Assembly: GCA_964427735.1 (NCBI GenBank)
Contig: CAYRUS010000002.1
Location: forward strand, 131,734-195,733
Source: an uncultured Gammaproteobacteria bacterium
GTDB taxonomy: Bacteria; Patescibacteriota; Microgenomatia; UBA8517
Direction: 5' to 3'
DNA: 64,000 bases
The notes beneath the pieces were generated by a model that did no database searches, was not told the origin of the DNA, and saw only the letters and a program-made list of their open reading frames with translations. Below, in pieces: positions 42,560 to 64,000 of the stretch. The first letter of the stretch is position 1. The number at the start of each line of letters is the position of its first letter. The position numbers and the translations under genes were made by a program.

Positions 42560-43498
42560 AAGTAAATGTCTAAATTATTGTAGCATGTTGCCAAGATTGT
42601 TACTTGTATTTTTGTACCTTTTAATAAATCGCCGTGCAACAATGTCCTAGAGTCATTGTTTTCAACTAATTAATATTAGTCTAAATTGGACATACCGACC
42701 TCCTCCAGTATTAATTGTCCAACTTTTACAATAATTATCAAATAGATATAGTAATCATATTTCCTTCTAAATATTGATTTATAGGTTGTACTTTGAGTAT
42801 AACTAAGCACCAAATCTAATAAAATTTCTTAAATTTCTTCGAAATATTAGCTATGTAAAGCTTTTATATCCTAAATAATATTCTAATTCTCAAATTGGAG
42901 AGAAATATAAGTGGATATGTTTTTTCTGCAAGTAATGCGTTATTTTACGAGCCTTATTTGTCCGTAATTTGTAAATAGATATAATTTCTGCATTCTATTT
43001 ATGGAAAATAATAGATATTTGTATTGATTTTGTTGCGGTTTAATATGCGTATATTTTATTTCCGCACGGTATTTGTTCGTTTATCATGCCTATTTTTAGT
43101 AAATTGATGTCGCTAATGCTTATGTGACAATTGTATGATTAAATTTCTCACTTATTTCTGCAAATATGGCAAATTGCGGAAATATACCTTCGCTTATCAT
43201 CTTATGGCATTGAACACGGATGCCAATAATTTGACTGATATATACCGCATGACGTGCGTTTATTATGCCTAAATTTCATTTTTACCTTTAGTTGCAAGAT
43301 TAAAACTTATTTAGCAAGAAGTCTTCAAGTATTTACCTAACTAAAATTTCAACCTAGCCTGATTAAGGTTTTAAGTAGAAGCATCTTCCAACGTATTAAT
43401 CTAAAAATTACCACAATAATGCCCCATAAATAAATATAAAACGATATTGACAACAACAGCCAAAACTGTATTAATGATATTGGACATTACAAACTTAA

Positions 43499-46400
43499 AT
43501 GTCCATTTTTAATACCTGTCCAATGCCCAACAGTACAAAAGTCTATCTATCAATACACGAAGCTGCTGATTACTTGAATGTATCACGCAAAACATTAAGG
43601 CGATGGGAAAAGACTAAAGTGTTAATTCCCTTGCGCACTTCAGGTGGCCATAGAAGATATACAAAAGACCAGCTAGATAAGTTTAAAAAGATTAAAGGTA
43701 GAAAAAGAATAACAAGCAAAGTAAAGACTAAAGTATTCGAAAACAAGACTAGCCAAGCGGTACAGTTACCTACTTTGAGTAATACTAACAAAACTCAAGA
43801 AAGAACGTCAGAAGATAGTAATATTAATCTTCTTGACACAAATATAAATAATAGCCCAAAAGACGAATATATAGATTACAATGACAACCATGAACACACT
43901 ATCAAATATCATAAGGATCACATTCCTATAATCGAAACAGAAACACCATCTCAAATCACCACCGAAAATCTAATTTTGCCTCAGAATAATATCCAGACTA
44001 ATTCCAAACCTAAAAATAACGCAAGTAAATTGAGATCTGTTTCCTACTTCTTTGTGTTTCTACTCTTGTTTGGTGGATTTGTATACTCTGTAAAAGCACT
44101 CCCTGGAGTGGATCTAAATATATCAAAAGGTATCAAGTCTAGTATGGCAGGCTCATCAAACAGTGGGAATATCCAATCAGCCTTTGAAAGGGTCCTTGCT
44201 GCAACCTCTTTTAATCTTTCCTTATTACGCGTAAATGTAAACTCAATTTTCGAAGAAGACATTGCAATTAATGGTGAGAATATAACTACATCATCAGATA
44301 CAATCAATTTATTCAATGAGAACGCTACAACAATTTCCTTTGGAGGCGAAGCTGAAGCAATAAACATAGGAGCTCCCACAGGAACTACAGTTATTAATAA
44401 TGCATTAAATGTAGGATTAGATTTAGCTGTTAATGGTAATTTGTCTGTAGTAGGTATTGCTACTCTAAACACGCTTACTTTAGGAGCAGACACTATTACA
44501 GATATTACTGGAGATGGATTAATTGTGGTTGATGGTGCTCTTACTTCTACATTTGGATCGTCAATAGATTCTACTGATATAACAGATGGAACTATCTCTT
44601 CAGTAGATCTTAATATATCAAACTCTCCCTCTGATGGATTAATCCTAGCCTATGATGAATCCACCGGAGGTTTTACCTGGGTAGTAGACCAAACCGGGGC
44701 TGGAGGAAGCTTGTTCACAGACGCTGGCACAGTAACATATTTAACCGATACTACTGATGACTTGGTTATCGGCGGGACAGTTGCACTCTCCTCCAGTAAA
44801 GTATCAATAGATGGAGATAGTGACCAAATACAATTCTTAGTTCAAGGAAATTCAACCCAAACTACAAACCTTGCAGTTTTCGAACAATCAGATGGAACAG
44901 ACGTATTAACAATTGACAACTCAGGAAACTTAATAACCGCAGGAAGCATTTCAGCGGCCACCAATGAAACTATTAACGGAATTGATATTAGTGCTGGTAC
45001 TATTTCTGATGTTGTTAATTTACTCATTAATGCTGGCGGGGATTTATCAATTGGAGGAATTGGTTTAAGTGATACTGGAGCTAATAATCTAACATCAGGT
45101 GCAAGCCTAATTGGTGTTTTTGACGAATTCACAAATTCTAACTCCACTACACTCCAAGCTGTATTAAATGACCTTGATGCGGCAATAGGATCTGGTTCAT
45201 CCAAGTGGACACAAGATGTTGGATTTATTTATCTCACTAACTCGACAGACTCTATTACAATTGGAGGAAACACAGAGCTTGGAAAACTTGCTATAGCAGG
45301 TGATGCTGACGAATTGCAGTTTGTTGTTAGAGGAAATGCAACCCAAACAGCAAACCTAGCTACCTTTGAAAACTCCTCAGGGGATGATCTTTTGGCAGTT
45401 ACAAGTATGGGAGATCTTCTATCGGGATTTACACAGTTAGATGGAAGTTCAACTGCAAACGGTGCAGGTGCAGCCTCAAAAACTTTGGTCTTACAAGCAG
45501 GTGGTGGCGCCAATTTTGATATTGGAAACTATGTAAGAATTGATAGTACAAACTGCGACGGTGCCGCTGACACTTGTTATTCAAAAATTAGAGGTAAATC
45601 TGGCGACACACTTACACTAAGCAATTCCCTAACCTGGGCAAATGGTAGTGTTGTTTTAGAATATCATATACCCGAAGTCGGAGGAACTAACCTAGCTGAT
45701 ACTCTTGATAATAGATATGGTCTAGGTTATTTCATCAGCGGTGTAACCACAGGAAATGCCTCAACTTTCTATGGGGATGGCGAAATAACAACCTCAAGTG
45801 TTACTAATTTGAATTCTAAAAGCTTATCCATTCGTACAGGAAACTCAGTTGTTTCAGGAAACTCCGGAGATATAATAATTGATACTGGATCTGCAGAAGG
45901 TACAGCAGGTACAATTTCTATTGGAGAAAATAACACAAGCGGTATCACAATAGGTCATAGTGGTATAAATACTACCATATCAGGAAATCTTATTTTCAAC
46001 AGCCAAACAATTAATAACTTTACCGGCAATGGTCTAACAACATCCTCAGATGCTCTAACGATTCAACTAACAAATGCAGCAGACGAACTATCTTCTACAA
46101 CAAGCTCAGGGTCTGGTTTGGAAGTATTATCATCTGGTTTGACCCTTCTCCAAGGATGCGATAACGGTCAAGTTCTAAAGTGGAATGAATCAAATAATTC
46201 ATGGGAATGTGCAAATGACACAGGAGCCTCAAGTGCTGTAATAAATGTAGAAAACAATGATGTAGAAGTTGGTACAGACGTAGACACATTGGACTTTAGC
46301 ACAGATTTTATTCTTACAGCTTCTCCTTCTAACGAGGTCAACATATCCATAGCGGATGATGTTATAAACTTTACGGAAATTAGTGATTCGTTAACACTAG

Positions 46401-49400
46401 ACGCAAATACAAATGTAGCGCTAGGAGCTTTAACTTTTTCCACTTCAGGCACAGGATCTTTAGATTTTAATTCAACTGGTCAAGTATCCTTTGCGGGAAA
46501 TGTTGATGCGGAAAATGGACTTGACGTTACTGGATCATCATTAACTGTAGGTGGCACGGCATTTGTAGTTGGTACAGACGGAACGATTAGCGCAGGAACC
46601 TGGAGTGGAACTGCAATTGCTGCTCAGTACGGTGGAACAGGTATCGACACATCAGGAGCTACAGGTGTTCCTTATGTTTCTTCAGGTATTTGGAATACTG
46701 AATCCACTTTATCTCTTTCTCGCGGAGGTACAGGAGCATCACTTACTGATCCTAACGCTGATAGAATCCTCTTCTGGGATGACTCCGCAAACTCCACTGC
46801 CTTCCTTACTGTAGGATCTGGTCTTTCTCTCTCTGATACCACTCTCTCTGCTGTTGATACTTCTGCTACTAATGAATTGCAAAACCTCTTCTCTACTATC
46901 TCTGTCTCTGGACAAAGTAATGTAGTCGCTGATTCAATCACTGATACTCTTACTCTTGCAGCCGGATCTAATATCTCCATCACTACTGATGCATCTAATG
47001 ACATTATTACTATCGCTGCCTCTGACTCTGATACTAACAACTTCACTACAAGCATCGCTTTTACCGGTACCTCTACAAAAACTTTAACTCTAACTAGAAA
47101 TGGTCTAGCTGATCTAACTGCAAACTTTACTGATATTGGCTTTGATAACCCTATGACTACTGCAGGAGATATTATTTATGGCGGTGTTAGTGGAACAGCA
47201 ACCAGACTAGCAGGTTCTGCTAATGATGGTTACGTACTAAAATTTGATGCTAATACCAATGCTCCATTTTGGGCAGAACTCATAGATAATGATACAAACT
47301 ATTGGGAATTAAGTGAAGGCATTCTCTCTCCAGATACATCTCAAAACGCAGAAGGTATCGCAGCAACATCTTCTGCGACAACAGTTGCTACATTCACAAG
47401 CACTGGTTCAAATGATTCTTTTTGGGCAGGATCCGTAGGTAATTATTTGACAATTTCCTCTACCGGAGGTCTTACTGTCCCGGGAGCAACAAATCTTAAC
47501 GGTTCCTTTAGTTTAGGAGATGGTGGCGACACAGGATCAATTAATACATCGACATGGGACATTTCATCCACAGGAGCAATTACTGGTGCTACTTATGAAG
47601 GATTAACTATCACTACAACTACCGGTACTCTTACTATCGCATCTGGAAAGACATTAACCGCAAATAACTCCCTTACCCTTGTAGGTAATGATTCTGATAC
47701 TTGGACTTTCCCCTCTGCTTCTGGAGCGTCAGGGACAGTAGTTGGCACTGATGAATCTCAAACCTTAACAAACAAAACACTCACAAGTCCTAGAATCGGT
47801 ACCTCTATTCTTGATACTAACGAAAATCCTCTTTTTTCTCTCTCTGCAACCGGTTCAGCTGTCAATTACCTAACTTATGCTAATGCAGCTACAGGAAACA
47901 ATCCCACCTGGACTGCTACTGGGTCTGATACGAATATTTCCCTCACTACGTTGCTTAAAGGCACTGGAGCTGTTCTGTTTGGCTCAACTATTGCGAATTC
48001 TGATACAATCAGTATCAAACCACAAACTTCTACTACAACTAACCCTTTTTCTGGAACTATTACCTCTGAAGATTTAACTGCTGATAGGACCTGGACTTTC
48101 CAAGATGCAGACGGCACCCTGGCTTTCTTATCTGATATTCCTACTTCTGATAACTACCAATACTGGACATTATCTGATGGTTCTAATACAGCTCAAATCA
48201 ATAGCACTGAAACTTTTCAAATAAATACAGGTACAGGAATTACTGCTCTTGTAGCAGAAGGATCGCCAAATACATTGACGCTTTCTGTAACGGATGATTC
48301 TGATACTAATGAATTGCAAAATCTCTTCTCAACTATCGCCGTTTCCGGGCAAAATAATGTCGTCGCAGATTCAATTACTGATACTCTTACCCTTGCAGCC
48401 GGATCTAATATCTCTATAACAACAGATGATACTAATGACATTATTACCATAGCAGCCACAGATACAAATACTACCTACTCCGCAGGGAATGATCTAGATT
48501 TATCGGGTACTCAATTTAATATCGAATCTGAGCTTAATTTTGTAACCAGTATAAACCCAACAAATTCTGCACTTTCTTTAGCATCAAATGGATCTGGTAA
48601 TGATATAAATTTAACATCAGCAAACGCCATTGCCTTTGATGATGCCACATTAACTACAGCGATTACACTCACAGATACAGACACTGCTTTTGATTCTGGT
48701 CATACAGCCATAGTAGATGCTATAAATGCAGCTTATAATGCAGCAACGGGTGGAGGTGCAGGACTTTGGGAGGTAAATTCTGGTGTGTTAAATCCTTCAA
48801 GTTTAACTCAAGATCTAGCCATTGGAGGTACTGATAACACTGCAGCGCTTTTCTTTGATACAAGTACCTCTGCTTTAACATTAAATCCTTTTGGTACATC
48901 AACAGGCAATACGGGAGAGTTAAGACTTACAGAACTTGCTGCAGAAGGTACTAATTATACCGGATTTAAATCTCCTGACTCTTTAGATGCAAACTTGATG
49001 TATACACTTCCTTCCTCAGCAGGATCTAATAATTATGTACTTACAACAGATGGTTCTGGAGGTCTATCCTGGCAAGCTGTAGGAGATGTTGGCGCTGGTT
49101 CTGGAGACGTAACTGCTGTCGGTGATTGTTCTGGAAATGATTGCTTTACTCAATCAGGAACAGGAAATACTCTCTATTTTGAAGGAGCTACGGCAAATGA
49201 CTTTGAAATTGCTCTGACAACCACAGGAGACCCAGATCAAGACTACACAATCACATTGCCAAATGCTTCTGGTGAAATTACAGTATTAGGCCAAAGTATT
49301 GATTTGACAAGCGAAGTTACAGGTGTACTTCCTTTGGCTAGCGGAGGTACAGGAGCATCACTTACTGATCCTAACGCTGATGGAATCCTCTTCTGGGATG

Positions 49401-52400
49401 ACTCCGCAAACTCCACTGCCTTCCTTACTGTAGGATCTGGTCTTTCTCTCTCTGATACCACTCTCTCTGCTGTTGATACTTCTGCTACTAATGAATTGCA
49501 AAACCTCTTCTCTACTATCTCTGTCTCTGGACAAAGTAATGTAGTCGCTGATTCAATCACTGATACTCTTACTCTTGCAGCCGGATCTAATATCTCCATC
49601 ACTACTGATGCATCTAATGACATTATTACTATCGCTGCCTCTGACTCTGATACAACCTATACATTTACTAATGGTTTAACTGAATCTGGTGGCACTGCTA
49701 AACTAGGTGGAACTTTAACCGAAAATACAACTCTTACTACTGACACTTTTGCATTTATAGTTGATTCTCTTAACTTTGATGGCACTACAATTGGCTTAAC
49801 ATCAGATACTGACCTGCTCTCTTTATCTTCTGGAGCTCTAACTGTTAACGGAACTGGTACCTTTACAGGAGATCTGACTGCTAGTGCAGACTTGATTGTT
49901 AGCGGAAGAGGAAGTTTCTCCCATGGCAATAACCAAGGTCTTAATATACCAACTGTAGCAGGTACACCGTCTGCTGTTACAGGTACATCAGAAGGAGATA
50001 TTGTTTATGACTCTACTGGAGATGCTCTTTATATCTATGATGGTAGCCAATTCTCCCAAATTGGTGGTGGTGGCTACAGTGGTTGGACGTTAACCGGTGA
50101 TACGGGTTCGCAGGTTATTAGCTCCGGAGATACAGTATCTGTCATAGGCGGAACTAATTTAACTTCAGTGGTTACTGCTACTGATACTCTTACTCTCAAC
50201 CTCGATGATAATATTACCTTGGCTGGTACCACTGGTATTACACTAACGGGAACTGGCTCTGGAATAACTTTTGAAAATTCAAGCATCATTACCAATCCAT
50301 CGGCTTCGGTGTTTGCCTTTGGTGATAGTACTAACACTCTTTCACTGAACCTGGCAGCAGAATCTGCTGGGAGCATAGATTTCACCACCAACGACACCGT
50401 AAACCTCACCCTCAACCCGGGAGGAAACGTCGGGATTGGGACGACTGATCCATCAGAGATGCTACATGTGGCAGGAGATGTACTCTTTGAGCAAAATCTC
50501 GCAATCAACGATGCCTCTATACATGATAATTATGTCATCAACATGAAAGTCGGCAACACTACAAGCGGAAGTGGTCACAGAGGCATTAATATGTCAGGTG
50601 AAAATATTAGCAAAAACGTTACTGGATTGTTTTTGAGCGTAAACAACACAAGCGCAAATACCACTGGAGTAAATACCTTTGTGATTGGAACTGATGCAGC
50701 TTCTCTCTACGGGGCTTCGAATATTTTGATTACAAATTATGCAGCTTATGGAGTCAATAACTCTATTACTGCTAAAGATGACGCCACTCAACAAAGACTA
50801 TATGGAACCCGCACTGAATTGACAACCTACACCAATGATGTTGGGTACGGACTTTTTGTCAAGCCTTCCATTTTTGCCACCGGAGGTACTCAATACGGCG
50901 CCTATTTTGATTTTACAAGCTCCAACACAACTAACTATGGTGTCTACCAAACTGGTGAAGCCACCAACTATTTCGCAGGTACGGTGGGGATTGGTGATGA
51001 TGCTCCGGATTTTGCGCTGCAGATTGGCGAGGTGGCAGCGGGAGTGGATACGGCTAATGGAGTCGGGATTGCCGGGGACTTACAGGTGGATGACTTTGCC
51101 CTCATAAATGCACTTAGAGTAGGATCAACTGCTACGGATCCAGGAGATGGAAATGCATACATTGAGGGGAATTTGACAGTGAACGGTCGAGGAATCTTTA
51201 CTCATGGCAATAACCAAGGTCTTAATATACCAACTGTAGCAGGTACACCGTCTGCTGTTACAGGTACATCAGAAGGAGATATTGTTTATGACTCTACTGG
51301 AGATGCTCTTTATATCTATGATGGTAGCCAATTCTCCCAAATTGGTGGTGGTGGCTACAGTGGTTGGACGTTAGATGGTGATACAGGAACTCCTGAAAGT
51401 ATAAATTCATCAGACACAGTAACTTTTGCAGGAGGGAATGGTTTAGCATCTGTGGTGTCCTCTACTGACACACTTACCTTTAACTTAGCAGCCCTTACAT
51501 CTGACTGGGATCAAACAGGCGCAAACGACATCATACTAAATCATGCTGACTCAGAACTTAAGATTTTAGAGAGTACAGGAGGAACATATTATGCCACTAT
51601 TGACGCTGGAGATTTAGACCAAGATGCAACTTTGAGAATAGATTCAGGAATTAACCTTGATGGAAATGGCAATACCCTCACCTTATCAGGAAATCTAAAT
51701 GTTGAAAGCATTTCAGCCATTAACCAAGATCTAACCACTGATGCAACAGGTGTGGCATTTGGAGATTTAACCTTAGCAGGTTCAGCTGAAGGTACAGATG
51801 CATTGACCATCACCGCAGGTGACCTCACTCTGGAAGATGGCGATCTAGTACTATCCTCTGGACAATTTACTCTAAATTCTGATGATACTGATGTTACCAC
51901 CGATGAACTTAAGGCATTTAACTTAACTTCCTCTGTCACATTTGATACAACATCAGCAAGCCTTATAAATTATGGTGCTTATATCAGTAACACGAGCAGT
52001 ATCAGCAGTGGTGCAAACACTCTTACTAATATTGGTCTTTATGCAACTGCATCTGGTGCAGACAATAATTATGCAGCGATATTTGAAAATGGAAATGTAG
52101 GAATTGGAACTACATCTCCTACAGAAAAACTACACGTATCTGGTGATGCCTTGCTAAGTGGGCAACTTGCCCTTCATGGAGCTAGTGTAAATGACGACTA
52201 CGCAATTAATATTGGAAATCTCTCAACGAACCAACGAGGTATTAACATCTCTGCAGGAAGCCCAACTAGTCCAGTGTATGGAGTGTACTTTGACATTAGC
52301 AACCCCGGTAGCACTGGTGCAAGTTATGCGTACTATGCCAATGCAACTAATCCCGGCGATTTTGCTGGTTTGATGACAAACGTAACGGGCGGCCGATCAC

Positions 52401-55400: not shown

Positions 55401-55456
55401 ATACTGGAACTCAAGACGAGGTTAAATTTAACTGGTGGGTGGTTGATGTCCAATAA
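43499..55456 (+). CDS. giant (3985 aa) membrane-anchored fibre-like surface protein: N-terminal HTH_17-like domain, single TM, ~3,200-aa Ser/Thr/Gly/Asn-rich repeat ectodomain, then a phage tail-spike-type intramolecular chaperone auto-processing (peptidase S74-like) domain and a C-terminal coiled-coil
   Basis: One uninterrupted ORF. aa ~15-65 'LSIHEAADYLNVSRKTLRRWEKTKVLIPLRTSGGHRRYTKDQLDKF' is an HTH. TM 'VSYFFVFLLLFGGFVYSV' at nt ~44039-44092. Recurring 'xGNVGIGTTxPxxxLHVxGD' tail-fibre-like modules. nt ~53918-54270 'SDARLKTDVVEMDYGLETLMQLRPVSYTLKGNEESGTQLGLIAQEVLGIIPEVVRV...YSSLIPVLINSIQEQQ' matches the conserved S74/CIMCD signature. Near-identical internal DNA repeats are listed separately. 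Confidence 0.8.
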   Translation: MSIFNTCPMPNSTKVYLSIHEAADYLNVSRKTLRRWEKTKVLIPLRTSGGHRRYTKDQLDKFKKIKGRKRITSKVKTKVFENKTSQAVQLPTLSNTNKTQERTSEDSNINLLDTNINNSPKDEYIDYNDNHEHTIKYHKDHIPIIETETPSQITTENLILPQNNIQTNSKPKNNASKLRSVSYFFVFLLLFGGFVYSVKALPGVDLNISKGIKSSMAGSSNSGNIQSAFERVLAATSFNLSLLRVNVNSIFEEDIAINGENITTSSDTINLFNENATTISFGGEAEAINIGAPTGTTVINNALNVGLDLAVNGNLSVVGIATLNTLTLGADTITDITGDGLIVVDGALTSTFGSSIDSTDITDGTISSVDLNISNSPSDGLILAYDESTGGFTWVVDQTGAGGSLFTDAGTVTYLTDTTDDLVIGGTVALSSSKVSIDGDSDQIQFLVQGNSTQTTNLAVFEQSDGTDVLTIDNSGNLITAGSISAATNETINGIDISAGTISDVVNLLINAGGDLSIGGIGLSDTGANNLTSGASLIGVFDEFTNSNSTTLQAVLNDLDAAIGSGSSKWTQDVGFIYLTNSTDSITIGGNTELGKLAIAGDADELQFVVRGNATQTANLATFENSSGDDLLAVTSMGDLLSGFTQLDGSSTANGAGAASKTLVLQAGGGANFDIGNYVRIDSTNCDGAADTCYSKIRGKSGDTLTLSNSLTWANGSVVLEYHIPEVGGTNLADTLDNRYGLGYFISGVTTGNASTFYGDGEITTSSVTNLNSKSLSIRTGNSVVSGNSGDIIIDTGSAEGTAGTISIGENNTSGITIGHSGINTTISGNLIFNSQTINNFTGNGLTTSSDALTIQLTNAADELSSTTSSGSGLEVLSSGLTLLQGCDNGQVLKWNESNNSWECANDTGASSAVINVENNDVEVGTDVDTLDFSTDFILTASPSNEVNISIADDVINFTEISDSLTLDANTNVALGALTFSTSGTGSLDFNSTGQVSFAGNVDAENGLDVTGSSLTVGGTAFVVGTDGTISAGTWSGTAIAAQYGGTGIDTSGATGVPYVSSGIWNTESTLSLSRGGTGASLTDPNADRILFWDDSANSTAFLTVGSGLSLSDTTLSAVDTSATNELQNLFSTISVSGQSNVVADSITDTLTLAAGSNISITTDASNDIITIAASDSDTNNFTTSIAFTGTSTKTLTLTRNGLADLTANFTDIGFDNPMTTAGDIIYGGVSGTATRLAGSANDGYVLKFDANTNAPFWAELIDNDTNYWELSEGILSPDTSQNAEGIAATSSATTVATFTSTGSNDSFWAGSVGNYLTISSTGGLTVPGATNLNGSFSLGDGGDTGSINTSTWDISSTGAITGATYEGLTITTTTGTLTIASGKTLTANNSLTLVGNDSDTWTFPSASGASGTVVGTDESQTLTNKTLTSPRIGTSILDTNENPLFSLSATGSAVNYLTYANAATGNNPTWTATGSDTNISLTTLLKGTGAVLFGSTIANSDTISIKPQTSTTTNPFSGTITSEDLTADRTWTFQDADGTLAFLSDIPTSDNYQYWTLSDGSNTAQINSTETFQINTGTGITALVAEGSPNTLTLSVTDDSDTNELQNLFSTIAVSGQNNVVADSITDTLTLAAGSNISITTDDTNDIITIAATDTNTTYSAGNDLDLSGTQFNIESELNFVTSINPTNSALSLASNGSGNDINLTSANAIAFDDATLTTAITLTDTDTAFDSGHTAIVDAINAAYNAATGGGAGLWEVNSGVLNPSSLTQDLAIGGTDNTAALFFDTSTSALTLNPFGTSTGNTGELRLTELAAEGTNYTGFKSPDSLDANLMYTLPSSAGSNNYVLTTDGSGGLSWQAVGDVGAGSGDVTAVGDCSGNDCFTQSGTGNTLYFEGATANDFEIALTTTGDPDQDYTITLPNASGEITVLGQSIDLTSEVTGVLPLASGGTGASLTDPNADGILFWDDSANSTAFLTVGSGLSLSDTTLSAVDTSATNELQNLFSTISVSGQSNVVADSITDTLTLAAGSNISITTDASNDIITIAASDSDTTYTFTNGLTESGGTAKLGGTLTENTTLTTDTFAFIVDSLNFDGTTIGLTSDTDLLSLSSGALTVNGTGTFTGDLTASADLIVSGRGSFSHGNNQGLNIPTVAGTPSAVTGTSEGDIVYDSTGDALYIYDGSQFSQIGGGGYSGWTLTGDTGSQVISSGDTVSVIGGTNLTSVVTATDTLTLNLDDNITLAGTTGITLTGTGSGITFENSSIITNPSASVFAFGDSTNTLSLNLAAESAGSIDFTTNDTVNLTLNPGGNVGIGTTDPSEMLHVAGDVLFEQNLAINDASIHDNYVINMKVGNTTSGSGHRGINMSGENISKNVTGLFLSVNNTSANTTGVNTFVIGTDAASLYGASNILITNYAAYGVNNSITAKDDATQQRLYGTRTELTTYTNDVGYGLFVKPSIFATGGTQYGAYFDFTSSNTTNYGVYQTGEATNYFAGTVGIGDDAPDFALQIGEVAAGVDTANGVGIAGDLQVDDFALINALRVGSTATDPGDGNAYIEGNLTVNGRGIFTHGNNQGLNIPTVAGTPSAVTGTSEGDIVYDSTGDALYIYDGSQFSQIGGGGYSGWTLDGDTGTPESINSSDTVTFAGGNGLASVVSSTDTLTFNLAALTSDWDQTGANDIILNHADSELKILESTGGTYYATIDAGDLDQDATLRIDSGINLDGNGNTLTLSGNLNVESISAINQDLTTDATGVAFGDLTLAGSAEGTDALTITAGDLTLEDGDLVLSSGQFTLNSDDTDVTTDELKAFNLTSSVTFDTTSASLINYGAYISNTSSISSGANTLTNIGLYATASGADNNYAAIFENGNVGIGTTSPTEKLHVSGDALLSGQLALHGASVNDDYAINIGNLSTNQRGINISAGSPTSPVYGVYFDISNPGSTGASYAYYANATNPGDFAGLMTNVTGGRSHGVVNNLTVTSDYGYGVRNTITSSSTGFNSIYGVRSDLTSAGTDSLGINNAYGNFNIIKGTNDEFAQKLFGSYTELTTHANDLGYGMMVTNAAASTGGTTYGVYLNLTDTDVTRYGIYEAGGATNYFEGSIGVGTNNPGAKLDVQGGLRLGADTGANNILNTTAAAGAASGDLYWGDKLLCDSSESNCGWTTSSSGSNYWTADSGVLSPNGTDGEVIAATSSATTVATFTSEGSNDALKAGSTDNYFTVGNGGHARLVDGSVSTPGLGFVNDPDTGIYRSASDTLDFTAGGVRGLSINTIASGVNYLSLTPSATGNSVDLGVAGSDANIGLDIASKGTGSISFTSGNITGTGSSSSFVFNANALTSGYGIDLTSTSTGLTTGRLLNLSWEPGSATTATGDLFRLNIGANGNIGNLFHITDNGSTLFRVSESQIESALPHAFTATGDVSVAYDLVFTNQSSGEIQSYGPLTIASGERFENNNLTLRTYGTGDLVADLGASGEFIPGTDDAHNLGNSTNRWKEVFSALGTINTSDARLKTDVVEMDYGLETLMQLRPVSYTLKGNEESGTQLGLIAQEVLGIIPEVVRVPEDINNGYYGIRYSSLIPVLINSIQEQQEIITNQKSQLTTLQSDLASISTKVGNIELNSTGEIASIAADLIATNEIKARNGNLEIDLAESNAEGKLVITGQNEKTVAEIDSEGNARFDGKIKAEEINTQNLETENATVSGELRAKKIIADEIIGFESNSITRSEIEAMLAEYEQDQSLLNEASEWELGTTEGVASLTELMTENLYVTQTAALDSLSVSNSAVIGGDIIISPSNIEAGLGNSINTLTSPLELQSAASQPLKIMAGLVTIDTNGNVTISGDLAVAGKVTTSGINLVQDDTQEATESATVLSVTDKEGSEVATVTATGSATFKELSADRFAVKQDEEATSTENSAGTTFTNNASAGSAIIPAGSKQVIIKNNIVKENSLIFVTPTSPTPNTIYIKDQVEGAFMVGFDTGTQDEVKFNWWVVDVQ
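46722..47034 (+). repeat. 313-bp intragenic direct repeat, copy 1 (~99% identical to 49341-49653)
   Basis: Direct reading: identical except for a single visible substitution (gatagaatcc vs gatggaatcc). Encodes 'RGGTGASLTDPNAD(R/G)ILFWDDSANSTAFLTVGSGLSLSDTTLSAVDTSATNELQNLFSTISVSGQSNVVADSITDTLTLAAGSNISITTDASNDIITIAASDSDT'. Confidence 0.9.
48301..48465 (+). repeat. diverged (~85%) third copy of the 3' part of the 313-bp intragenic repeat
   Basis: '...TNELQNLFSTIAVSGQNNVVADSITDTLTLAAGSNISITTDDTNDIITIAATDT' at protein level; nucleotide similarity clear by eye. Confidence 0.7.
49341..49653 (+). repeat. 313-bp intragenic direct repeat, copy 2
   Basis: See copy 1; offset 2619 nt (a multiple of 3, so the frame is preserved). 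Confidence 0.9.
49922..50092 (+). repeat. 171-bp intragenic perfect direct repeat, copy 1 (identical to 51203-51373)
   Basis: Encodes 'HGNNQGLNIPTVAGTPSAVTGTSEGDIVYDSTGDALYIYDGSQFSQIGGGGYSGWTL' in both places; offset 1281 nt (in frame). Confidence 0.9.
51203..51373 (+). repeat. 171-bp intragenic perfect direct repeat, copy 2
   Basis: See copy 1. Confidence 0.9.
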
Positions 55457-58400
55457 AATGAAAAAACTAAAAAGACTAAAAATATTTAGAACAAAAAAAC
55501 AGAGATTATTAGCCTTATTTATGCTAGTGGTCTTTTTAGGATCTATCGTACTTTTTAATTTAATTTTTATTAAAGATGCAAGCGCTGCTTGGTGGGACGA
55601 CAACTGGGCTTACAGAGTAAGAGTACCTGTAACAAACAATACAACTACAGAGACAGACGTATACATTGTCTTTGATGGAGACACACTATTTATAGACACA
55701 TCTGATACAAATAAATTTCAGGCAGATTGTGGTGACTTAAGATTCCTAAAAGAAAACGGAGATCTTCTTCCCTATCGCGTAGTCTCTGGATGTGGTACTG
55801 CAAATACAGAAGTTCATGTCAATTTTGACAAGTTTCCTACGGGATCACAAAACATATACTATTATTATGGTAATCCCGATGCTCCAGATGGTTTTGTCAC
55901 CTCTTCTTTTTCTACAGAAGCATCTGATTACACAATTGGCACACCAGCCTCAGAAGAAAAAGGTCCGACACCTGCAATTTATTTAAAATTTGATGAAGGA
56001 TATGGAACAACTGCCTTTGATAGTTCCTCAAATGGTAATGATGGTTCAATCTCATCGGCAAGATGGAAAAACAAAGATTACTGCATTTATGGTAATTGTC
56101 TATTTTTTGACGGAATAGATGATGTAGTAACTGTAGCAAATGCCAATTCAATTGACTTTGATAGTGATTTGGCAGACGGGTTTACCATTGGTATGTGGGT
56201 TAGAGTTAATTCAGATGGTGAAAGTTCAACAGGAGAAATTCTAGATAAAGGAACTAACACTTATATTAAAGTTCATTCAGAAGATACTGACGGCAAAGCT
56301 GATTTAGAAGTCAAACTGGACCTAACAACAACGGACGCAAATTTAAATATTACCGATGGGATAACCATTGATAGATGGCATCACCTATCAGTGATATACG
56401 ACGGAAACAGTTCTATAACTGTATACATAGATGGAGAAAATTCGGGAAGCAATACTGGATCCGGAAGTCTGGAAACTGATACCAGTGATTTATTAATTGG
56501 TGGTGATTCAGCGAATAATTTCCACGGCTTTATTGACGAATTTAAAATATACAATTACATCCGTACCGCTAACCAAATACAATCAGACATTATAAATCTT
56601 GCTTCAGATAGAGGCAACAGTGCCACTTTTGGAACTAGTAATAAATTTTTATCAGATGGACTGATGGGATATTGGAACTTGGACGAAGAAAGCGGTAATG
56701 CAACTGATAATAGTGGGCATGGAGTTACTTTAACAAACAATAACACTACTACTTTAACTGGAGGTAAATACGGACATTCAGGTGATTTTGAGAGTTCCAA
56801 CTCTAATTTTTTTAATGCCATCCAGGGAAGTTCAAGCACTGTAAATACTGCCATAGTGAGACAAAATGCTCCAACCACATTTGGGACACAAGACTTTACA
56901 TCTACTGGGTTTGGTACACCAAAAGCAGCACTTTTTATTATGTCAGAAGCACCTTCTGAGGGATCAGTAACCGCAAATGCATCTCTTAGCATTGGTTTTA
57001 CAGATGGGGTTAGTCAATTTGTAAATGCTGTAAAAAGTGTGGATAACGTTTCTCCTGTTGATACATTTACGCAGTTAAGCAATGCTGCTGTCATTGAAGA
57101 AGGAACTACTTCCAGTTCACGAGCACGAGCATCATTTGATTCTTGGATTACAGATGGTGTACGAATCAATTGGGCGAGTAATAGTGGTGGAGGGAATCGA
57201 TTGGTTACTGTGATTTTGTTTGGTGGCGATGATCTTAATGCAAAAGTCACATCTTTTACCACAAATTCCACCAGTGGAAACTCTACAAATGTAGATTTGG
57301 GATTCGTACCAGACCTGGCATTTTTTATGACAGGATCTTCCGGAACATCAACGATCTCAAATGCATGGACGAGCTTTGGTTTTTCCAGTAACACAACTCC
57401 TATCGTGAATAGTTCTGTTAACATTTTCTCTGGCGACAACATATCGACTTCTGAAACATTCATGTTCGCACATACCAACAGAGCCTACTTGAGAATGAGA
57501 TCTAACGCAAGTACAGTTCAACATTCTGCTGAAGTCACGGGTTATATAAGCACACCTGTCCAGGGCATACAGGTTACAACCAGAGATGTAAACAGAAGTG
57601 CGGATATAGCAACATTAGCTTTTAAGTTTAATGATGGAGCAGAATTCTGGGCTGGTATGGTCGATTCTCCAACTACAACCGGTGATCATTCTGTTACCTC
57701 ACCTGGATTCGAACCTTCATTCGTTTGGCAGTTTATGTCAAATGTCACAGCTTTGAATACAAAAATCGACGGGGTCGCATTGGGTTCTTCAACCTTTAAT
57801 TCTACTACAAGTTACAGCAACAGTATGACAGATCAAGACAATGTGTCTACATCAGTTGCAAAATCTCTATCTGAATCAAAAGCAGTTAAACAAAATTTAC
57901 AAAATAACACGACCGGCTTTACAGGAACACTATCTTCTATGGATTCATCAGGTTGGACAATAAATTATACAGATACCCAATCTACTTCAGCTAAATGGCC
58001 TGCTATGGCGATTGGCGGTGGCAACGGTGGAAGTCAATCAGCAACTTCCCATGATCACCTAAATCCACCAGAAAGTCTAACAATTTCTACTTGGATTAAA
58101 CCAGAATCTGTTACTGCTGATACCCAATTTAATATTGTTGGTAAATGGGACAGTAGTGAAGAAGGATATTTGCTTGCTCAATATGGAGATGAAATAAGAA
58201 TGTATATAAATTCAAACTCAAACTATGTAACTACAAATTCTGCCAACCTTTCTACTGGAGTTTGGTACCACATAACAAGCATATATGACGCTCAAGAGCA
58301 AAAAGTAAAAATTTTTATTAATGGTAATGAATCTCCTGCCACAACAACCGGCACAATACCGTCTGCTATTACAAACACCGGAGGAGTTTTCCATATAGGT

Positions 58401-61295
58401 GCAGCAAATTCTACAAACACTGCAGAAAACTTTTATGATGGAAAAATTGATGATGTGAGAATTTACAACCGTGCATTTCTAATTTCCGAAATTACCAAAC
58501 TCTATCAATGGTCCCCCGGTCCTGTAGCTCACTGGAAATTAGACGAAGGGACAGGAACAATTGCAAATGATTCATCTACTTATATTAAAGGCGGAACGCT
58601 AGGTGGAGATGGTGTAGGAACTGACATCCCTACCTGGACTGATGGAAAATACTCCAAGGGACTTCATTTTGACGGCACAGATGACTATGTAGATGTAGGC
58701 ACTGAAATTGGATTTAGATACAGCTTTACTGCAATGGGGTGGATATATTTAGAAGAAGATCCTTCAGCTGGAGGTGATGATTGTGATACTCCGATTATAA
58801 ACAAGCAGGGCGATTTGAGTTCAAGAGATTTTGAACTACAAAACGAATGCGGGTCATGGCAGTTCAGAGTAGCTTCTTCAGACGGATCTGCAAATATTGA
58901 TTTATACGCTGATACGAATGCAAATGAAGATATCGGAGTCTGGACACACGTTGCAGGAGTATATGATTCTGAAAACCAGACGATGGACATATATATAAAT
59001 GGTGTTAAGTCAAATGGACTTTTAACTAATTCTGTACCATCCTCTATAAACAAAACTAACAATCCTGTTTGGTTGGGTGCAAGAGAAAGTGTAGGGTTTT
59101 TGGAGGGTAGGCTGGATGATATTAAACTTTATAATTATCCCCGATCTTCAAAACAAGTAATAGAAGATTTGAATGCAGGGACCCCTTCCCCCGGATCTCC
59201 TATAGGGTCAGCAGTAGCTAGATGGAAATTTGACGAAGGCTATGGAACTACTGCCTATGATTCAAATACCGAAAACGGTGACGCTCTAGACTTGACTTTA
59301 TCAACAGAAGACTCTGCATGGATAAATGATGGGAAGTTTGGAAAAGCATTTAGTGCAGGTGGATCTCGTTGGCTAACAAGAGCTGATGATGACCATCTGG
59401 ATTTCGAAGCAAGCGAAGATATGACAATAAGCTTTTGGCTCCGATCAACAATTGCCGCTGGAGGAAACCCAACTTCTACCGAATATATTATTAACAAACC
59501 ACCATCAGGAACTACAAACGGCGGCTATGCAATCTATGCTAATACTTCTGGTCAAATTTGCTTCGGAATTGACGATGATAATAGCAGTTTCCCAGAAGAT
59601 GAAACCTGCACTAGTGATGATATCTATGACAATGAATGGCATCACGTCACAGCTGTTAAAGATGGTGTTTCTAGCCTTAGAATGTATGTTGATGGCCGTC
59701 AAAACGGTAATCCTGACTTATCTATATCTGCAACAACAAATACTCTTGCAAACTCCTCAGACTTTTTTGTCGGGTCAGCAGATGCAGTAGACAATGACGA
59801 CGACTTTAACGGAGATCTGGATGAGATACAAATATTTAGATCTACACTAGATTCTAGTCAGGTCAAAATTCTTTATAATCAAGGTTTTGCACAAACAATG
59901 GGAACAACCAGTACAGATTCCTCTGGTGATGGCACATATTCTTCTAGTAATGAATATTGTCCTCCAGGATTTGAGTCTACCTGTGCTCCACCAATTGCTC
60001 ATTGGAAGATGGATGAAAATACAGGCACTATAGTAAATGATATTTCTGGCAACAATTTAACTGGCAATCTAACCTCCTCCCCTGCTACAGCCACATGGAC
60101 TCAAGGAGTAAAAGGTGCAGGACTAAAATTTAATGGAGTTGATACTGCAGAAGAATTTATTACTGTTCCAGATGCAGATAGTAGTATTGCTGACTTTGGT
60201 GCAAGTGATAGCTTCTCTATTAGTTTGTGGGTAAAAGGTGACACACTCACAGATCGCCAAGTATTAGTAGCTAACGATGGACCGGGATATCTGATTCAGA
60301 TTGGAGGAAGCGCCAACAGTGGATATGCTCTTTTCCAGGTTCGTGATGGAACTTTTACACCAACTGTCAACTCTGGCTCCACCTCAATTGGCGATAACAA
60401 ATGGCACCATGTGGTTGGCATTAGAGATAAATCTTCAACTCAGTTGCATATATATGTTGATGGAATTTTAAGAGGCGTCAGTACAGACACCACCACAGGT
60501 TCTCTAGATAATACTGCCGATATATTAATAGGTGGAACATTATCATTCCCTTCTCAAGCATATATGGATGATGTAAAAATTTTTGACTATGCTTTGACTC
60601 CTGCACAAGTAGCATGGGATTACAATAGAGGCGGTCCTGTGGGATGGTGGAAGTTTGATGAATGTGAAGGACCAACAGGTTATGATTCGAGTGGATTTGA
60701 AAACAACGGAACAATTAATCCTGGTGACTCCACTGGAGCTAATGACTCAGTGGGTACTTGTACAGGAGGTTCTGGAGAAATGAGATCCGAAGGTGCAAAT
60801 GGAAAAAGAAACACTTCTCTTGATTTTGATGGTACCAATGATAATGTAAGCATAACTGGTATTGGAGTATTTAATAATCTAACTCAGTTCACTACTTCTG
60901 CTTGGTTTAAATGGGATAGCACAGGTTCTCAACAAGTGATCGTTAACAAATCAACTTCTGCACACTTGTATATTAATTCCAGCAATATTTTAAGTAGTTT
61001 TATAGGTGGCTCAGAATGCTCGTCTGGTGTTTCAATTTCACAAGATGTTTGGTACTACGGCACTGTAACTTATGATAGTACTAATGTAAAAATATACGTT
61101 AATGGTAATCTTAAATCGACTTGCGCAAGAACAGCTACTACAGGAACTGGTGATTTAACAATTGGATCAGACAGTACGCCATCCCAATATTTTGACGGAC
61201 AGATTGATGATGTAAAAATTTATAACTATCCTCAGACAGTAAACCAAATAAGAGCATCAATGAATGAAGGAGCTGTAAGGTTTGGAAATAATTAG
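55446..61295 (+). CDS. giant (~1,950 aa) secreted/anchored protein built from at least six tandem LamG / concanavalin-A-like lectin (Laminin_G_3-type) domains plus an S/T/N-rich region
   Basis: Start is ambiguous: ATG 55446 overlaps the upstream stop by 11 nt, and ATG 55458 follows it directly. N-terminal 'MKKLKRLKIFRTKKQRLLALFMLVVFLGSIVLFNLIFIKDASA' is a signal/anchor. Repeated modules begin 'W(K/N)(F/L/M)DE(G)xG' and contain 'L(H/K)FDG(T/V)DDYV.V', 'F(T/S)(I/A)..W(V/I)', 'WHHV..V(Y/K)D', 'IY(I/V)(N/D)G' and 'G.(I/L)D(D/E)(V/I)(K/R)I(Y/F)N'. This is the canonical LamG_3 pattern. Confidence 0.8.
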   Translation: MSNKMKKLKRLKIFRTKKQRLLALFMLVVFLGSIVLFNLIFIKDASAAWWDDNWAYRVRVPVTNNTTTETDVYIVFDGDTLFIDTSDTNKFQADCGDLRFLKENGDLLPYRVVSGCGTANTEVHVNFDKFPTGSQNIYYYYGNPDAPDGFVTSSFSTEASDYTIGTPASEEKGPTPAIYLKFDEGYGTTAFDSSSNGNDGSISSARWKNKDYCIYGNCLFFDGIDDVVTVANANSIDFDSDLADGFTIGMWVRVNSDGESSTGEILDKGTNTYIKVHSEDTDGKADLEVKLDLTTTDANLNITDGITIDRWHHLSVIYDGNSSITVYIDGENSGSNTGSGSLETDTSDLLIGGDSANNFHGFIDEFKIYNYIRTANQIQSDIINLASDRGNSATFGTSNKFLSDGLMGYWNLDEESGNATDNSGHGVTLTNNNTTTLTGGKYGHSGDFESSNSNFFNAIQGSSSTVNTAIVRQNAPTTFGTQDFTSTGFGTPKAALFIMSEAPSEGSVTANASLSIGFTDGVSQFVNAVKSVDNVSPVDTFTQLSNAAVIEEGTTSSSRARASFDSWITDGVRINWASNSGGGNRLVTVILFGGDDLNAKVTSFTTNSTSGNSTNVDLGFVPDLAFFMTGSSGTSTISNAWTSFGFSSNTTPIVNSSVNIFSGDNISTSETFMFAHTNRAYLRMRSNASTVQHSAEVTGYISTPVQGIQVTTRDVNRSADIATLAFKFNDGAEFWAGMVDSPTTTGDHSVTSPGFEPSFVWQFMSNVTALNTKIDGVALGSSTFNSTTSYSNSMTDQDNVSTSVAKSLSESKAVKQNLQNNTTGFTGTLSSMDSSGWTINYTDTQSTSAKWPAMAIGGGNGGSQSATSHDHLNPPESLTISTWIKPESVTADTQFNIVGKWDSSEEGYLLAQYGDEIRMYINSNSNYVTTNSANLSTGVWYHITSIYDAQEQKVKIFINGNESPATTTGTIPSAITNTGGVFHIGAANSTNTAENFYDGKIDDVRIYNRAFLISEITKLYQWSPGPVAHWKLDEGTGTIANDSSTYIKGGTLGGDGVGTDIPTWTDGKYSKGLHFDGTDDYVDVGTEIGFRYSFTAMGWIYLEEDPSAGGDDCDTPIINKQGDLSSRDFELQNECGSWQFRVASSDGSANIDLYADTNANEDIGVWTHVAGVYDSENQTMDIYINGVKSNGLLTNSVPSSINKTNNPVWLGARESVGFLEGRLDDIKLYNYPRSSKQVIEDLNAGTPSPGSPIGSAVARWKFDEGYGTTAYDSNTENGDALDLTLSTEDSAWINDGKFGKAFSAGGSRWLTRADDDHLDFEASEDMTISFWLRSTIAAGGNPTSTEYIINKPPSGTTNGGYAIYANTSGQICFGIDDDNSSFPEDETCTSDDIYDNEWHHVTAVKDGVSSLRMYVDGRQNGNPDLSISATTNTLANSSDFFVGSADAVDNDDDFNGDLDEIQIFRSTLDSSQVKILYNQGFAQTMGTTSTDSSGDGTYSSSNEYCPPGFESTCAPPIAHWKMDENTGTIVNDISGNNLTGNLTSSPATATWTQGVKGAGLKFNGVDTAEEFITVPDADSSIADFGASDSFSISLWVKGDTLTDRQVLVANDGPGYLIQIGGSANSGYALFQVRDGTFTPTVNSGSTSIGDNKWHHVVGIRDKSSTQLHIYVDGILRGVSTDTTTGSLDNTADILIGGTLSFPSQAYMDDVKIFDYALTPAQVAWDYNRGGPVGWWKFDECEGPTGYDSSGFENNGTINPGDSTGANDSVGTCTGGSGEMRSEGANGKRNTSLDFDGTNDNVSITGIGVFNNLTQFTTSAWFKWDSTGSQQVIVNKSTSAHLYINSSNILSSFIGGSECSSGVSISQDVWYYGTVTYDSTNVKIYVNGNLKSTCARTATTGTGDLTIGSDSTPSQYFDGQIDDVKIYNYPQTVNQIRASMNEGAVRFGNN

Positions 61296-61433
61296 TTTTT
61301 TATGTTTATACCATTATTTAGGGAAAATATTAATTTATTGAACAAATAATGCAATTTATAATTTATATACTTTTGCTGTCAAATTTACTTGACATTCAGT
61401 CACCGAAACCAATATAGTTTATAAGCAGAGAAT

Positions 61434-63503
61434 ATGGAAAAAACAATTAAAGCAATTCGCCTTACCATACTTTATTCACTTATCTTTCTATTGCCAATAA
61501 CAGTTCTTCCTATTTCAGCAAACCCATTTGTAGTTAGCAAAATTGCTTTATTGGTTTTTGGAATTGCAGCTTTACTTATTCTAAGAGCAATAGAAGTTAT
61601 CCATTCTGGTAAATTGAAGTTTTCGTTATCATCTTATGATTTGCCTGTAGCAATCATAATCCTGGCTTATATTTTAAGTTCTGTTTTCCAAACACAAAAT
61701 ATTATGGATGCTGTTTTGCTTCCTGGAACAGCTACAGCAGTAGTTGCTGGAGGAATTCTTTTCTTTTTGATTAATCAAGAAAGCAAAACTGACAAATACA
61801 GAATAAAAATGGCATTAGTGATCTCATCAGCTTTATATGCATTGCTAACTTTTTTTGGATTTGCAAAAGTTTTTGCACTTATTCCTCAGTTACCAACCTT
61901 TTTGCAAAACCCCAACTTCACTCCTGAAGGAGGATATTTACCATCACTGGTATTCCTAGTTGCTTTATTGCCTATTGCAGTAACTACTTTTATTAAAGAG
62001 AAAGATCTTGTTAACAAGTCATTTTTAGGAGTAAGCATTGCAATAATGGTACTTGGAGTTGGTTTATCTATTTATCAGATACTACCTGGGCGACCCACTA
62101 CTCCACAACTAAGTCCTTATCAAACCAGTTGGTCTGTTGCTGTTGAAGTATTAAAGAGAGAACCGATTTTAGGAATCGGACCAGGAGACTATCTTACAGC
62201 TTTTAGCCGTTTTCGACCAATTGAATACAATGCCACTGATTTTTGGGCAATACGATTTTCTAGCGCAAGAAGCTTTTTCCTAACTTTGCTTACTGAAACA
62301 GGATTATTGGGTCTTGCAGGACTAGCAATTCTTCTTGTTGTTGTTTACAGAAATGTTAAGCAGCTCATTAAATCTGAAAAAATATATACTGAAAATTATG
62401 GAAGCTGGATTTCATTAATAATACTAATAGTATTACTTGCTCTTTTCCCCGCAACTGTTTTGATTACAACATTGTTTTTTGTCTTGCTATCATTCTCTGC
62501 CAAAACAACCAGAACAGAACTAACACTCACAGCTAAATCTGCACATTCTTCAGCTGCATCCAGATTCCCTGCTGTAATGATTACTCTACCAATATTTCTT
62601 CTAGTATTAGCTGGATTATATTACTCGATTGTCATATTAACAGCTGAATACCGATTCGCTAGAGCATTGTCTTATCTCTCTCAAAATAAAGTCCAGCCAA
62701 CAGTAAATACTTTAGTAAGCGCAATTAACCTTAACCCAAGTGTTGACAGATATCGTGCTACTTATGCTCGTGTTAACCTAGCTTTAGCAGATTCATTGGC
62801 AAGAAAAGAAGAAATAACTGACCAAGACAGAGAAACCCTTGCACAACTAGTCCAATTATCAATTTCTGAAGCAAAGTCTGCAGTAGCCGCTAACCCACTA
62901 CGAGCTGGAAACTGGGAAGTTCTAGGAAGAACCTACCAAGCAATAATTCCTGTTGCACAAGGAGCGGATGTGTTTGCTGCACAATCTATTCAACAAGCCG
63001 TTGCTTTAGATCCTTTAAACCCTAATTTAAGAATCGCTCTAGGAGGACTCTTTTATCAAGCAGAAAATTATAAGGAGGCAATAAAAATATTCGAATTGGC
63101 TGTTCAGGTAAAACCAGATCTTGCTAATGCTCACTACAATTTAGCACATGCTTACAAGCAAGATGGTCAACTAGAAAATGCAGTGAGAGAAATGACAGTT
63201 GTGTTATCTTTAATTGACAGCAGTTCACAAGACTACCAAATTGCTAAACAAGCACTGGAAGAAATGGAAAAAACACTCGAATCACAGAGCGAAAGCACTG
63301 AAACACCAAGTACAGAAGGCGGTGAAGAGCTTTCTGCTCCACCAGAAGGTGAAGATCCACTGTTAGACCCACAGCTTGAACTACCTGAGGATGCTGCACC
63401 ACCTGAAGCACCAGAAACAGATATACAATCTGATGGCGATAATGGTGCATCACCGTCACCATCGCCAAGCCCTACACCATCACCCAGTGCAAGTCCCAGA
63501 TAA
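61434..63503 (+). CDS. polytopic membrane protein of the O-antigen ligase / O-oligosaccharyltransferase (Wzy_C) family with C-terminal TPR repeats and a Pro/Ser tail
   Basis: About 12 TM segments; Wzy_C-type loop 'GIGPGDYLTAF...ARSFFLTLLTETGLLGLAG' (G-x-G-x-G ... [H/R]-[N/S]-x-[YF]-L ... E-x-G motif). C-terminal TPR-like helices 'AIKIFELAVQVKPDLANAHYNLAHAYKQDGQLENAV'. Ends 'SPSPSPTPSPSASPR'. Confidence 0.65.
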   Translation: MEKTIKAIRLTILYSLIFLLPITVLPISANPFVVSKIALLVFGIAALLILRAIEVIHSGKLKFSLSSYDLPVAIIILAYILSSVFQTQNIMDAVLLPGTATAVVAGGILFFLINQESKTDKYRIKMALVISSALYALLTFFGFAKVFALIPQLPTFLQNPNFTPEGGYLPSLVFLVALLPIAVTTFIKEKDLVNKSFLGVSIAIMVLGVGLSIYQILPGRPTTPQLSPYQTSWSVAVEVLKREPILGIGPGDYLTAFSRFRPIEYNATDFWAIRFSSARSFFLTLLTETGLLGLAGLAILLVVVYRNVKQLIKSEKIYTENYGSWISLIILIVLLALFPATVLITTLFFVLLSFSAKTTRTELTLTAKSAHSSAASRFPAVMITLPIFLLVLAGLYYSIVILTAEYRFARALSYLSQNKVQPTVNTLVSAINLNPSVDRYRATYARVNLALADSLARKEEITDQDRETLAQLVQLSISEAKSAVAANPLRAGNWEVLGRTYQAIIPVAQGADVFAAQSIQQAVALDPLNPNLRIALGGLFYQAENYKEAIKIFELAVQVKPDLANAHYNLAHAYKQDGQLENAVREMTVVLSLIDSSSQDYQIAKQALEEMEKTLESQSESTETPSTEGGEELSAPPEGEDPLLDPQLELPEDAAPPEAPETDIQSDGDNGASPSPSPSPTPSPSASPR

Positions 63504-63623
63504 TGTATTTCAAAAGAGCACAAACTGGCTAACGTCTTTTGATATTTCTTAAAATAAATAATTAGCTAAGCTTTTTGAATAATTTAGTCTATTTCTTCTT
63601 AAGACTACTCAATATAGATTTAT

Positions 63624-63980
63624 TTACCAATCCTCAAGCTCTGCTTTAGAAGCAGCTAGAATGATTGTGGCCGAGTAGGAACCGGGAATTGTATTTTGAG
63701 GTACTTCTATAGCCCAATATGTACTTGATGCAGAAGGTGATAAATCTGACAATGTCTTGGGACAATTTAACTCTATTTCGGTAGAATTGGTAGTAAGCGG
63801 AGTAGCTAATGCAAAGGGTGTAGAACTACTCATTGTGTACCTTTGACTAGATACGGGTATAACGTCTCCTTCATTGCTTGTCAGGTTACTTCCATAAACA
63901 GCTGCATCCAGACCCGTATTACCTGTTGCTCTGATAATAACTTCATTGTCTGTAAACTGAGTTCTCTTTCCTTGTATCAA
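63624..63980 (-). CDS. hypothetical Ser/Thr-rich protein, possibly N-terminally truncated by the window edge
   Basis: ORF reaches to within 20 nt of the window end; the true start may lie beyond nt 64000. Confidence 0.3.
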   Translation of the reverse strand: MIQGKRTQFTDNEVIIRATGNTGLDAAVYGSNLTSNEGDVIPVSSQRYTMSSSTPFALATPLTTNSTEIELNCPKTLSDLSPSASSTYWAIEVPQNTIPGSYSATIILAASKAELEDW

Positions 63981-64000
63981 AGTTCCATAGTTTAAAAAGC

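Follow-up and report, generated by a model that had tools for sequence, protein, structure and literature searches.

DPANN and CPR symbionts, ultrasmall organisms presumed to be host-dependent, have giant surface proteins, secreted or anchored, with LamG/ConA-like domains; the nanohaloarchaeal SPEARE-type proteins are an example. Eukaryotic TMTC1-4 and bacterial GT-C+TPR enzymes combine a polytopic transferase domain for lipid-linked sugars with TPRs that come after it on the non-cytoplasmic side, and TMTCs O-mannosylate beta-sandwich (cadherin) domains. The O-antigen ligase WaaL and the O-oligosaccharyltransferases (O-OTases) PglL/PilO/PglS belong to the Wzy_C superfamily and have the GT-C(B) fold (PDB 7TPJ/7TPG); a catalytic His is the defining residue of WaaL, PglL and PglS. 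The mosaic adhesive trimer (MAT) fibres of Bdellovibrio bacteriovorus are tail-fibre-like proteins on the surface of a cell, not of a virus. Each has at its end an S74 self-cleaving chaperone (catalytic motif SDxxxK) or a beta-sandwich tip, and the fibres serve prey recognition in a small bacterium living on other bacteria (PMC10769870).

The window, a 64-kb stretch of DNA, encodes a 3,985-residue fibre (A), a six-domain lectin-repeat giant (B) and a WaaL-fold/TPR protein (C) of a Woesebacteria-like ultrasmall bacterium (Table 1). This organism is a Patescibacterium, probably without a lipid A-core. The three co-directional genes of the preliminary description were recovered; the A stop and the B start, there given as overlapping or abutting, overlap by 11 nt (A TAA at 55454-55456). 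An alternative ORF start for gene B lies at 55380; ATG 55446 is the most likely start, since it yields a product that matches a protein in the public collection exactly. Chance is excluded by ORFs of 12 kb (A) and 5.9 kb (B) in DNA of 34-40% GC. A 248,869-bp contig at NCBI encodes a protein identical to A, and an independent Logan assembly agreed with the window at 100% identity across 51434-64000.

Table 1. Positions of the genes, domains and putative promoters in the window.
Feature	Position	Strand	Basis or remarks
Putative promoter of gene A	43447-43475	+	TTGACA, 17 nt, ATTAAT; ends 24 nt 5' of ATG
Gene A	43499-55456	+	3,985 aa, bitopic giant fibre protein; ORF and translation
MerR/HTH_17 (excisionase-type) helix-turn-helix, A aa 16-66	43544-43696	+	Pfam/TIGR profile matches; predicted cytoplasmic
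Single TM helix SVSYFFVFLLLFGGFVYSV, A aa 180-198	44036-44092	+	Read from sequence
Shaft, A aa 199-3498	44093-53992	+	Repetitive, Thr/Gly/Ser/Asn-rich
Peptidase_S74 module, A aa 3499-3553	53993-54157	+	PF13884, 52.6 bits (cut-off 22)
Cmid, A aa 3554-3888	54158-55162	+	Post-S74 helix (coiled-coil-like) and beta-rich region
Cend beta-sandwich, A aa 3889-3985	55163-55453	+	C-terminal signature domain of the family, AGxAxIPAG...LIYVTPTS...FNWWIV
Gene B	55446-61295	+	1,949 aa, signal-anchored LamG array
DUF2341 domain of B	55725-55889	+	PF10102, 32.9 bits (cut-off 23.4)
LamG domain 1 of B, aa 223-380	56112-56585	+	jackhmmer self-search
LamG domain 2 of B, aa 839-1018	57960-58499	+	jackhmmer self-search
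LamG domain 3 of B, aa 1087-1240	58704-59165	+	jackhmmer self-search
LamG domain 4 of B, aa 1291-1474	59316-59867	+	jackhmmer self-search
LamG domain 5 of B, aa 1568-1723	60147-60614	+	jackhmmer self-search
LamG domain 6 of B, aa 1760-1937	60723-61256	+	jackhmmer self-search
Putative promoter of gene C	61389-61418	+	TTGACA, 18 nt, TATAGT; 11/12 consensus positions
Gene C	61434-63503	+	689 aa, polytopic WaaL-fold protein, C-terminal TPR domain, Pro/Ser/Glu-rich tail
11-TM domain, C aa 1-400	61434-62633	+	Outer loops most conserved: aa 86-98, aa 217-290
TPR superhelix, C aa 420-620	62691-63293	+	Pfam TPR families, PDB TPR matches, model helices 420-620

The block upstream of gene A (TTGACA, -10-like element, ATG) is kept in the orthologous regions of three relatives (loci L083, L084 and L085), and the site may function as a promoter. 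Sites of the type TTGACA...(AAA)TATAGT also lie 5' of C homologues in L003, L007, L008, L018 and L021. No terminator-like site was found on the + strand from 55000 to 64000. The trio had been described as an island. Its GC3 (0.21-0.26) equals that of the housekeeping genes atpA, atpD, leuS and iPGM (0.21-0.29), which places it in the core genome; the excess overall GC of A, B and C arises at codon position 2, that is, from a Thr/Gly/Ser/Ala-rich composition.

The product of gene A (Thr 14%, Gly 11%, Ser 11%) would be an N-in/C-out membrane-anchored, phage-tail-fibre-like giant, ordered as a cytoplasmic MerR-type HTH, a TM helix, a shaft of ~3,300 aa, an internal S74 self-cleaving chaperone and a tailspike-like Cend. 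Orthologues of 3,940, 4,865 and 7,954 aa have the identical set of N- and C-terminal modules. The HTH and TM helix, which were absent from the preliminary description, open the protein; the former was matched by MerR_1 (39.7 bits, cut-off 21.6), HTH_17 (37.5 bits) and TIGR01764 (34.6 bits, cut-off 28.8). The latter follows Lys/Arg, which by the positive-inside rule suggests the N-in, C-out topology. Scanning of the shaft against Pfam in 500-700-aa chunks gave no family match. Shaft length varies greatly among species, and the window shaft contains internal duplications (46719-47018 and 49338-49637, 99%; 49892-50106 and 51173-51387, 93%). The mismatches between the repeats lack adenine bias, and the repeats thus do not resemble products of a diversity-generating retroelement (DGR).

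The S74 motif of A is SDARLK (aa 3499-3504), aligned with SDRRIK in the chaperone domain of phage S16 gp37 (6f45). The module probably acts as an intramolecular chaperone and may self-cleave in A. It was thought to terminate the protein; it is in fact internal, with 432 aa beyond it. S74 was found by single-sequence phmmer search in 7 of 48 Cend proteins only. Cmid is kept in A-type proteins, according to two alignments and blast domain mapping, and has its helix at fragment residues 88-128 (AF2 secondary structure). Cend, the most conserved part of A, was modelled confidently (pLDDT about 90) and stops no more than about 10 residues short of the C-terminus in almost all of the 150 matches listed; its homologues form 1,084 clusters at 50% identity. 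Foldseek returned weak matches to the Pam1 tailspike (7eea), R2 pyocin fibre (6cl6) and K1 lyase (7w1c), and Pfam K1-lyase_C matches the same region in distant relatives. A Ser/Thr stands two residues ahead of the invariant Gly at the Cend opening in 31 of 36 sequences. The window opening, NNASAG, resembles the PilE acceptor of PglL, NNTS63AG, and is a lead only. The fibre may assemble as a trimer.

Compared with MAT fibres, whose Bd1334 and Bd2439 tips are among the weak fold matches to the A C-terminus, A differs on several points. MATs have a signal peptide and a conserved ~130-aa beta-rich N-terminal domain, whereas A has a predicted cytoplasmic HTH and TM anchor; MATs are about 1,000 aa with S74 terminal, whereas A has 3,985 aa with S74 internal and 432 aa beyond it; and A is paired with a WaaL-fold/TPR gene. 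With the C-terminal modules of phage tailspikes and tail fibres, A shares the S74 motif and domain (K1F endosialidase, T5 pb1 chaperones) and, through Cend, weak fold or profile links to K1 lyase PF24146 (Klebsiella phage), the cyanophage Pam1 tailspike and the R2 pyocin fibre. In contrast to these modules, A is the product of a cellular core-genome gene, predicted to be anchored in the membrane of the cell that encodes it; S74 and beta-sandwich are in tandem where phages have them as alternatives, and no phage family was detected in the shaft.

Gene B, translationally coupled to A, encodes an array of lectin-type domains that would be signal-anchored. Six to seven LamG repeats had been proposed; six were obtained both with Laminin_G_3 (E=1.5e-138, 6 stretches) and by jackhmmer, and a seventh was not. 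A 450-aa stretch gave no family match, and B showed neither a protease nor any other effector domain. Relative to the LamG giants of DPANN and CPR symbionts, B is a separate protein of almost only LamG and DUF2341, and is coupled to a tail-fibre-like giant. A and B overlap or lie <=7 nt apart in L026, L027, L052, L084 and L085, and in L061 the LamG domains form part of the fibre protein by fusion. B is an optional insertion and not core to the A/C module.

Gene C encodes a member of a family conserved at full length across Woesebacteria, Amesbacteria and Blackburnbacteria. Its description as a Wzy_C protein survives at the level of fold: the structure model (pLDDT 91.8) clearly matches WaaL. 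The family assignment is not borne out by sequence: Wzy_C scored E=5e-6 and 26.7 bits, under the gathering score of 31.7, PglL_A was not detected by Pfam scan, and hhalign against Escherichia coli WaaL was not significant. A weak match to the IctB family (TIGR00947, E=4e-9) was obtained. Where WaaL and PglL have their catalytic His (H338 and H349, respectively), the aligned residue is Arg, Asn, Ser or Gly, and no conserved His was found anywhere in the TM domain among 118 homologues. Basic loop residues K241, R259, R261 and K/R274 are retained in the family. The WaaL/PglL group has 12-13 TM helices and C has 11; C also adds a TPR domain, predicted to be extracytoplasmic, and a Pro/Ser-rich tail; the TPRs had been noted in the preliminary description. 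Conservation peaks in the outer loops (N89, W233, K241, GxGPGNY 247-253, R259, R261, N266, W271, E288, G290), a pattern that points to a ligand or active site on the outer side. The architecture resembles that of TMTC1-4 and the GT-C+TPR enzymes, which belong to a different GT-C subfamily and gave no sequence or fold match; the likeness is an analogy only.

A Cend gene was sought within about 10 kb of the C homologue in 80 Microgenomates species loci. Such a gene was present in 43 loci. In 24 of the 80 it lay directly upstream and co-directional, at a spacing of -30 (L051) to +241 nt, and its product had 250 to 3,985 aa. The order A, B, C was found in eight loci of the scan (L012, L018, L019, L026, L027, L042, L052, L056) and in two separately fetched relatives (L085, L088); in L084 the contig ends after A and B. 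L085 reproduces the neighbourhood leuS-atp-iPGM-up1 / giant-LamG-C, with C 47% identical. A SAM-like+TM protein lies no more than ~1 kb upstream of C in 11 further loci, a divergent Cend being detectable in 3, and in loci without the shaft a minimal SAM-like+TM+Cend protein is still encoded ahead of C. Neither a Cend nor a LamG gene lies upstream of C in about 30 of the 80 loci, several of which have very short flanks; a SAM-like+TM protein is nonetheless present upstream in eight of these (L063, L067, L070, L072, L076, L078, L080 and others). Co-conservation of the trio had been set beforehand as a test: the pairing of A-type genes with C emerged from the scan, and B as a core member did not. 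This conserved synteny indicates that the A-type gene and C are functionally linked. Since gene order is generally stable in the clade, with the unrelated leuS adjoining C in 21 loci, synteny alone overstates the coupling. O-oligosaccharyltransferase genes characteristically adjoin the genes of their own acceptors (PMC3643930).

The preferred reading, held tentatively and at somewhat less than an even chance, is that of a conserved envelope module made up of a fibre and its partner: C would modify the fibre, probably by glycosylation, or assemble it, and B would serve as a lectin accessory specific to the lineage. The outward-facing TPR domain of C would dock the exported fibre protein, and the membrane domain may O-glycosylate it from a polyprenyl-phosphate-linked glycan; in a weaker form, C would at least mature or anchor the fibre at the membrane surface. 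B would most likely give the fibre extra binding surfaces. The Cend-C pairing, the conserved outer loops of C, the S74 alignment to a solved phage chaperone domain and the weak tailspike-like matches of Cend favour this reading, as do the glycan genes of L088, where GT1, GT2, epimerase and methyltransferase genes come after the C homologue. Against it stand the missing His and the negative or sub-threshold profile results for C, its own promoter-like site and the loci lacking a Cend or LamG gene, and no glycan-synthesis or flippase gene was found in the window or 10 kb downstream. Of the glycosylated-adhesion interpretation proposed earlier, linkage by synteny and the WaaL fold are retained, and the O-OTase/ligase catalytic signature is not.

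Several of these observations also fit C as a Wzy-type polymerase or ligase for surface polysaccharide, with glycan or lipid acceptors rather than protein A, and its adjacency to the fibre gene as a result of envelope-gene clustering and stable order in small genomes. Wzy polymerases depend on loop arginines, and C lacks the ligase/O-OTase His while retaining the basic loop residues; the superfamily fold, the IctB match, the L088 glycan genes, the separate promoter-like site of C and the unrelated leuS as a further conserved neighbour point the same way. This alternative is nevertheless considered unlikely, given the tight co-directional Cend-C spacing in 24 species, the shaft-less protein still ahead of C, a TPR domain suggestive of a protein partner, and the lack of any flippase or co-polymerase gene near C within the window.

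It is doubtful, to a greater degree, that C has lost catalysis and transfers no glycan, serving as a WaaL-fold scaffold whose TPR domain would hold three fibre C-terminal parts at the membrane and nucleate trimer folding or anchor the fibre. The missing His and the conservation of Cend agree with this, as does the folding of tail-fibre-type proteins from the C-terminal end (S74 literature summarised in PMC10769870). C is, however, most strongly conserved in the outer loops of its membrane domain and not in the TPR alone, the pattern of an active or ligand site.

A could instead be primarily a ToxR-like membrane-tethered regulator with B and C as accessories, the extracellular fibre sensing contact and the cytoplasmic HTH altering transcription or tethering DNA. 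Proteins of the A family always carry a small domain of DNA-binding type at the start, with a TM helix after it, and two unrelated folds occupy this slot: a MerR HTH (window, L062, L066, L077, L083-L085) or a Phage_int_SAM-like domain (L013, L020 with E=1e-17, L036, L046, L049, L051, L061). Small tail-anchored MerR-HTH proteins also flank C in L008, L015, L021, L022, L024 and L087. Yet HTH_17 is fused in the window to an unrelated Peptidase_M20 as well, so the domain may have another purpose in the lineage; the MerR dimerisation or effector region is absent from A; and the S74 site lies ~3,300 aa outside the membrane, where cleavage cannot free the HTH, unlike in the eukaryotic membrane-bound factor MyRF. 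This reading is judged very unlikely. A prophage, tail-fibre remnant or horizontally acquired island, suggested by the S74 module and tailspike-like C-terminus of A, a match of B to the phage virion-protein family phrog_8510 and GC above the flanks, is effectively refuted by the housekeeping-like GC3, the lack of other phage genes (PHROG matches of A are confined to the HTH), the recurrence of the leuS, atp operon and iPGM neighbourhood in distant relatives, and the spread of full-length C across three lineages.

Readings in terms of 'host attachment' or an 'episymbiont' are extrapolations. C may transfer a glycan, and the module may have a role in attachment to another cell. The locus looks like a real, uncharacterised module of the cell envelope, of a kind typical of Microgenomates (Woesebacteria-like Patescibacteria).

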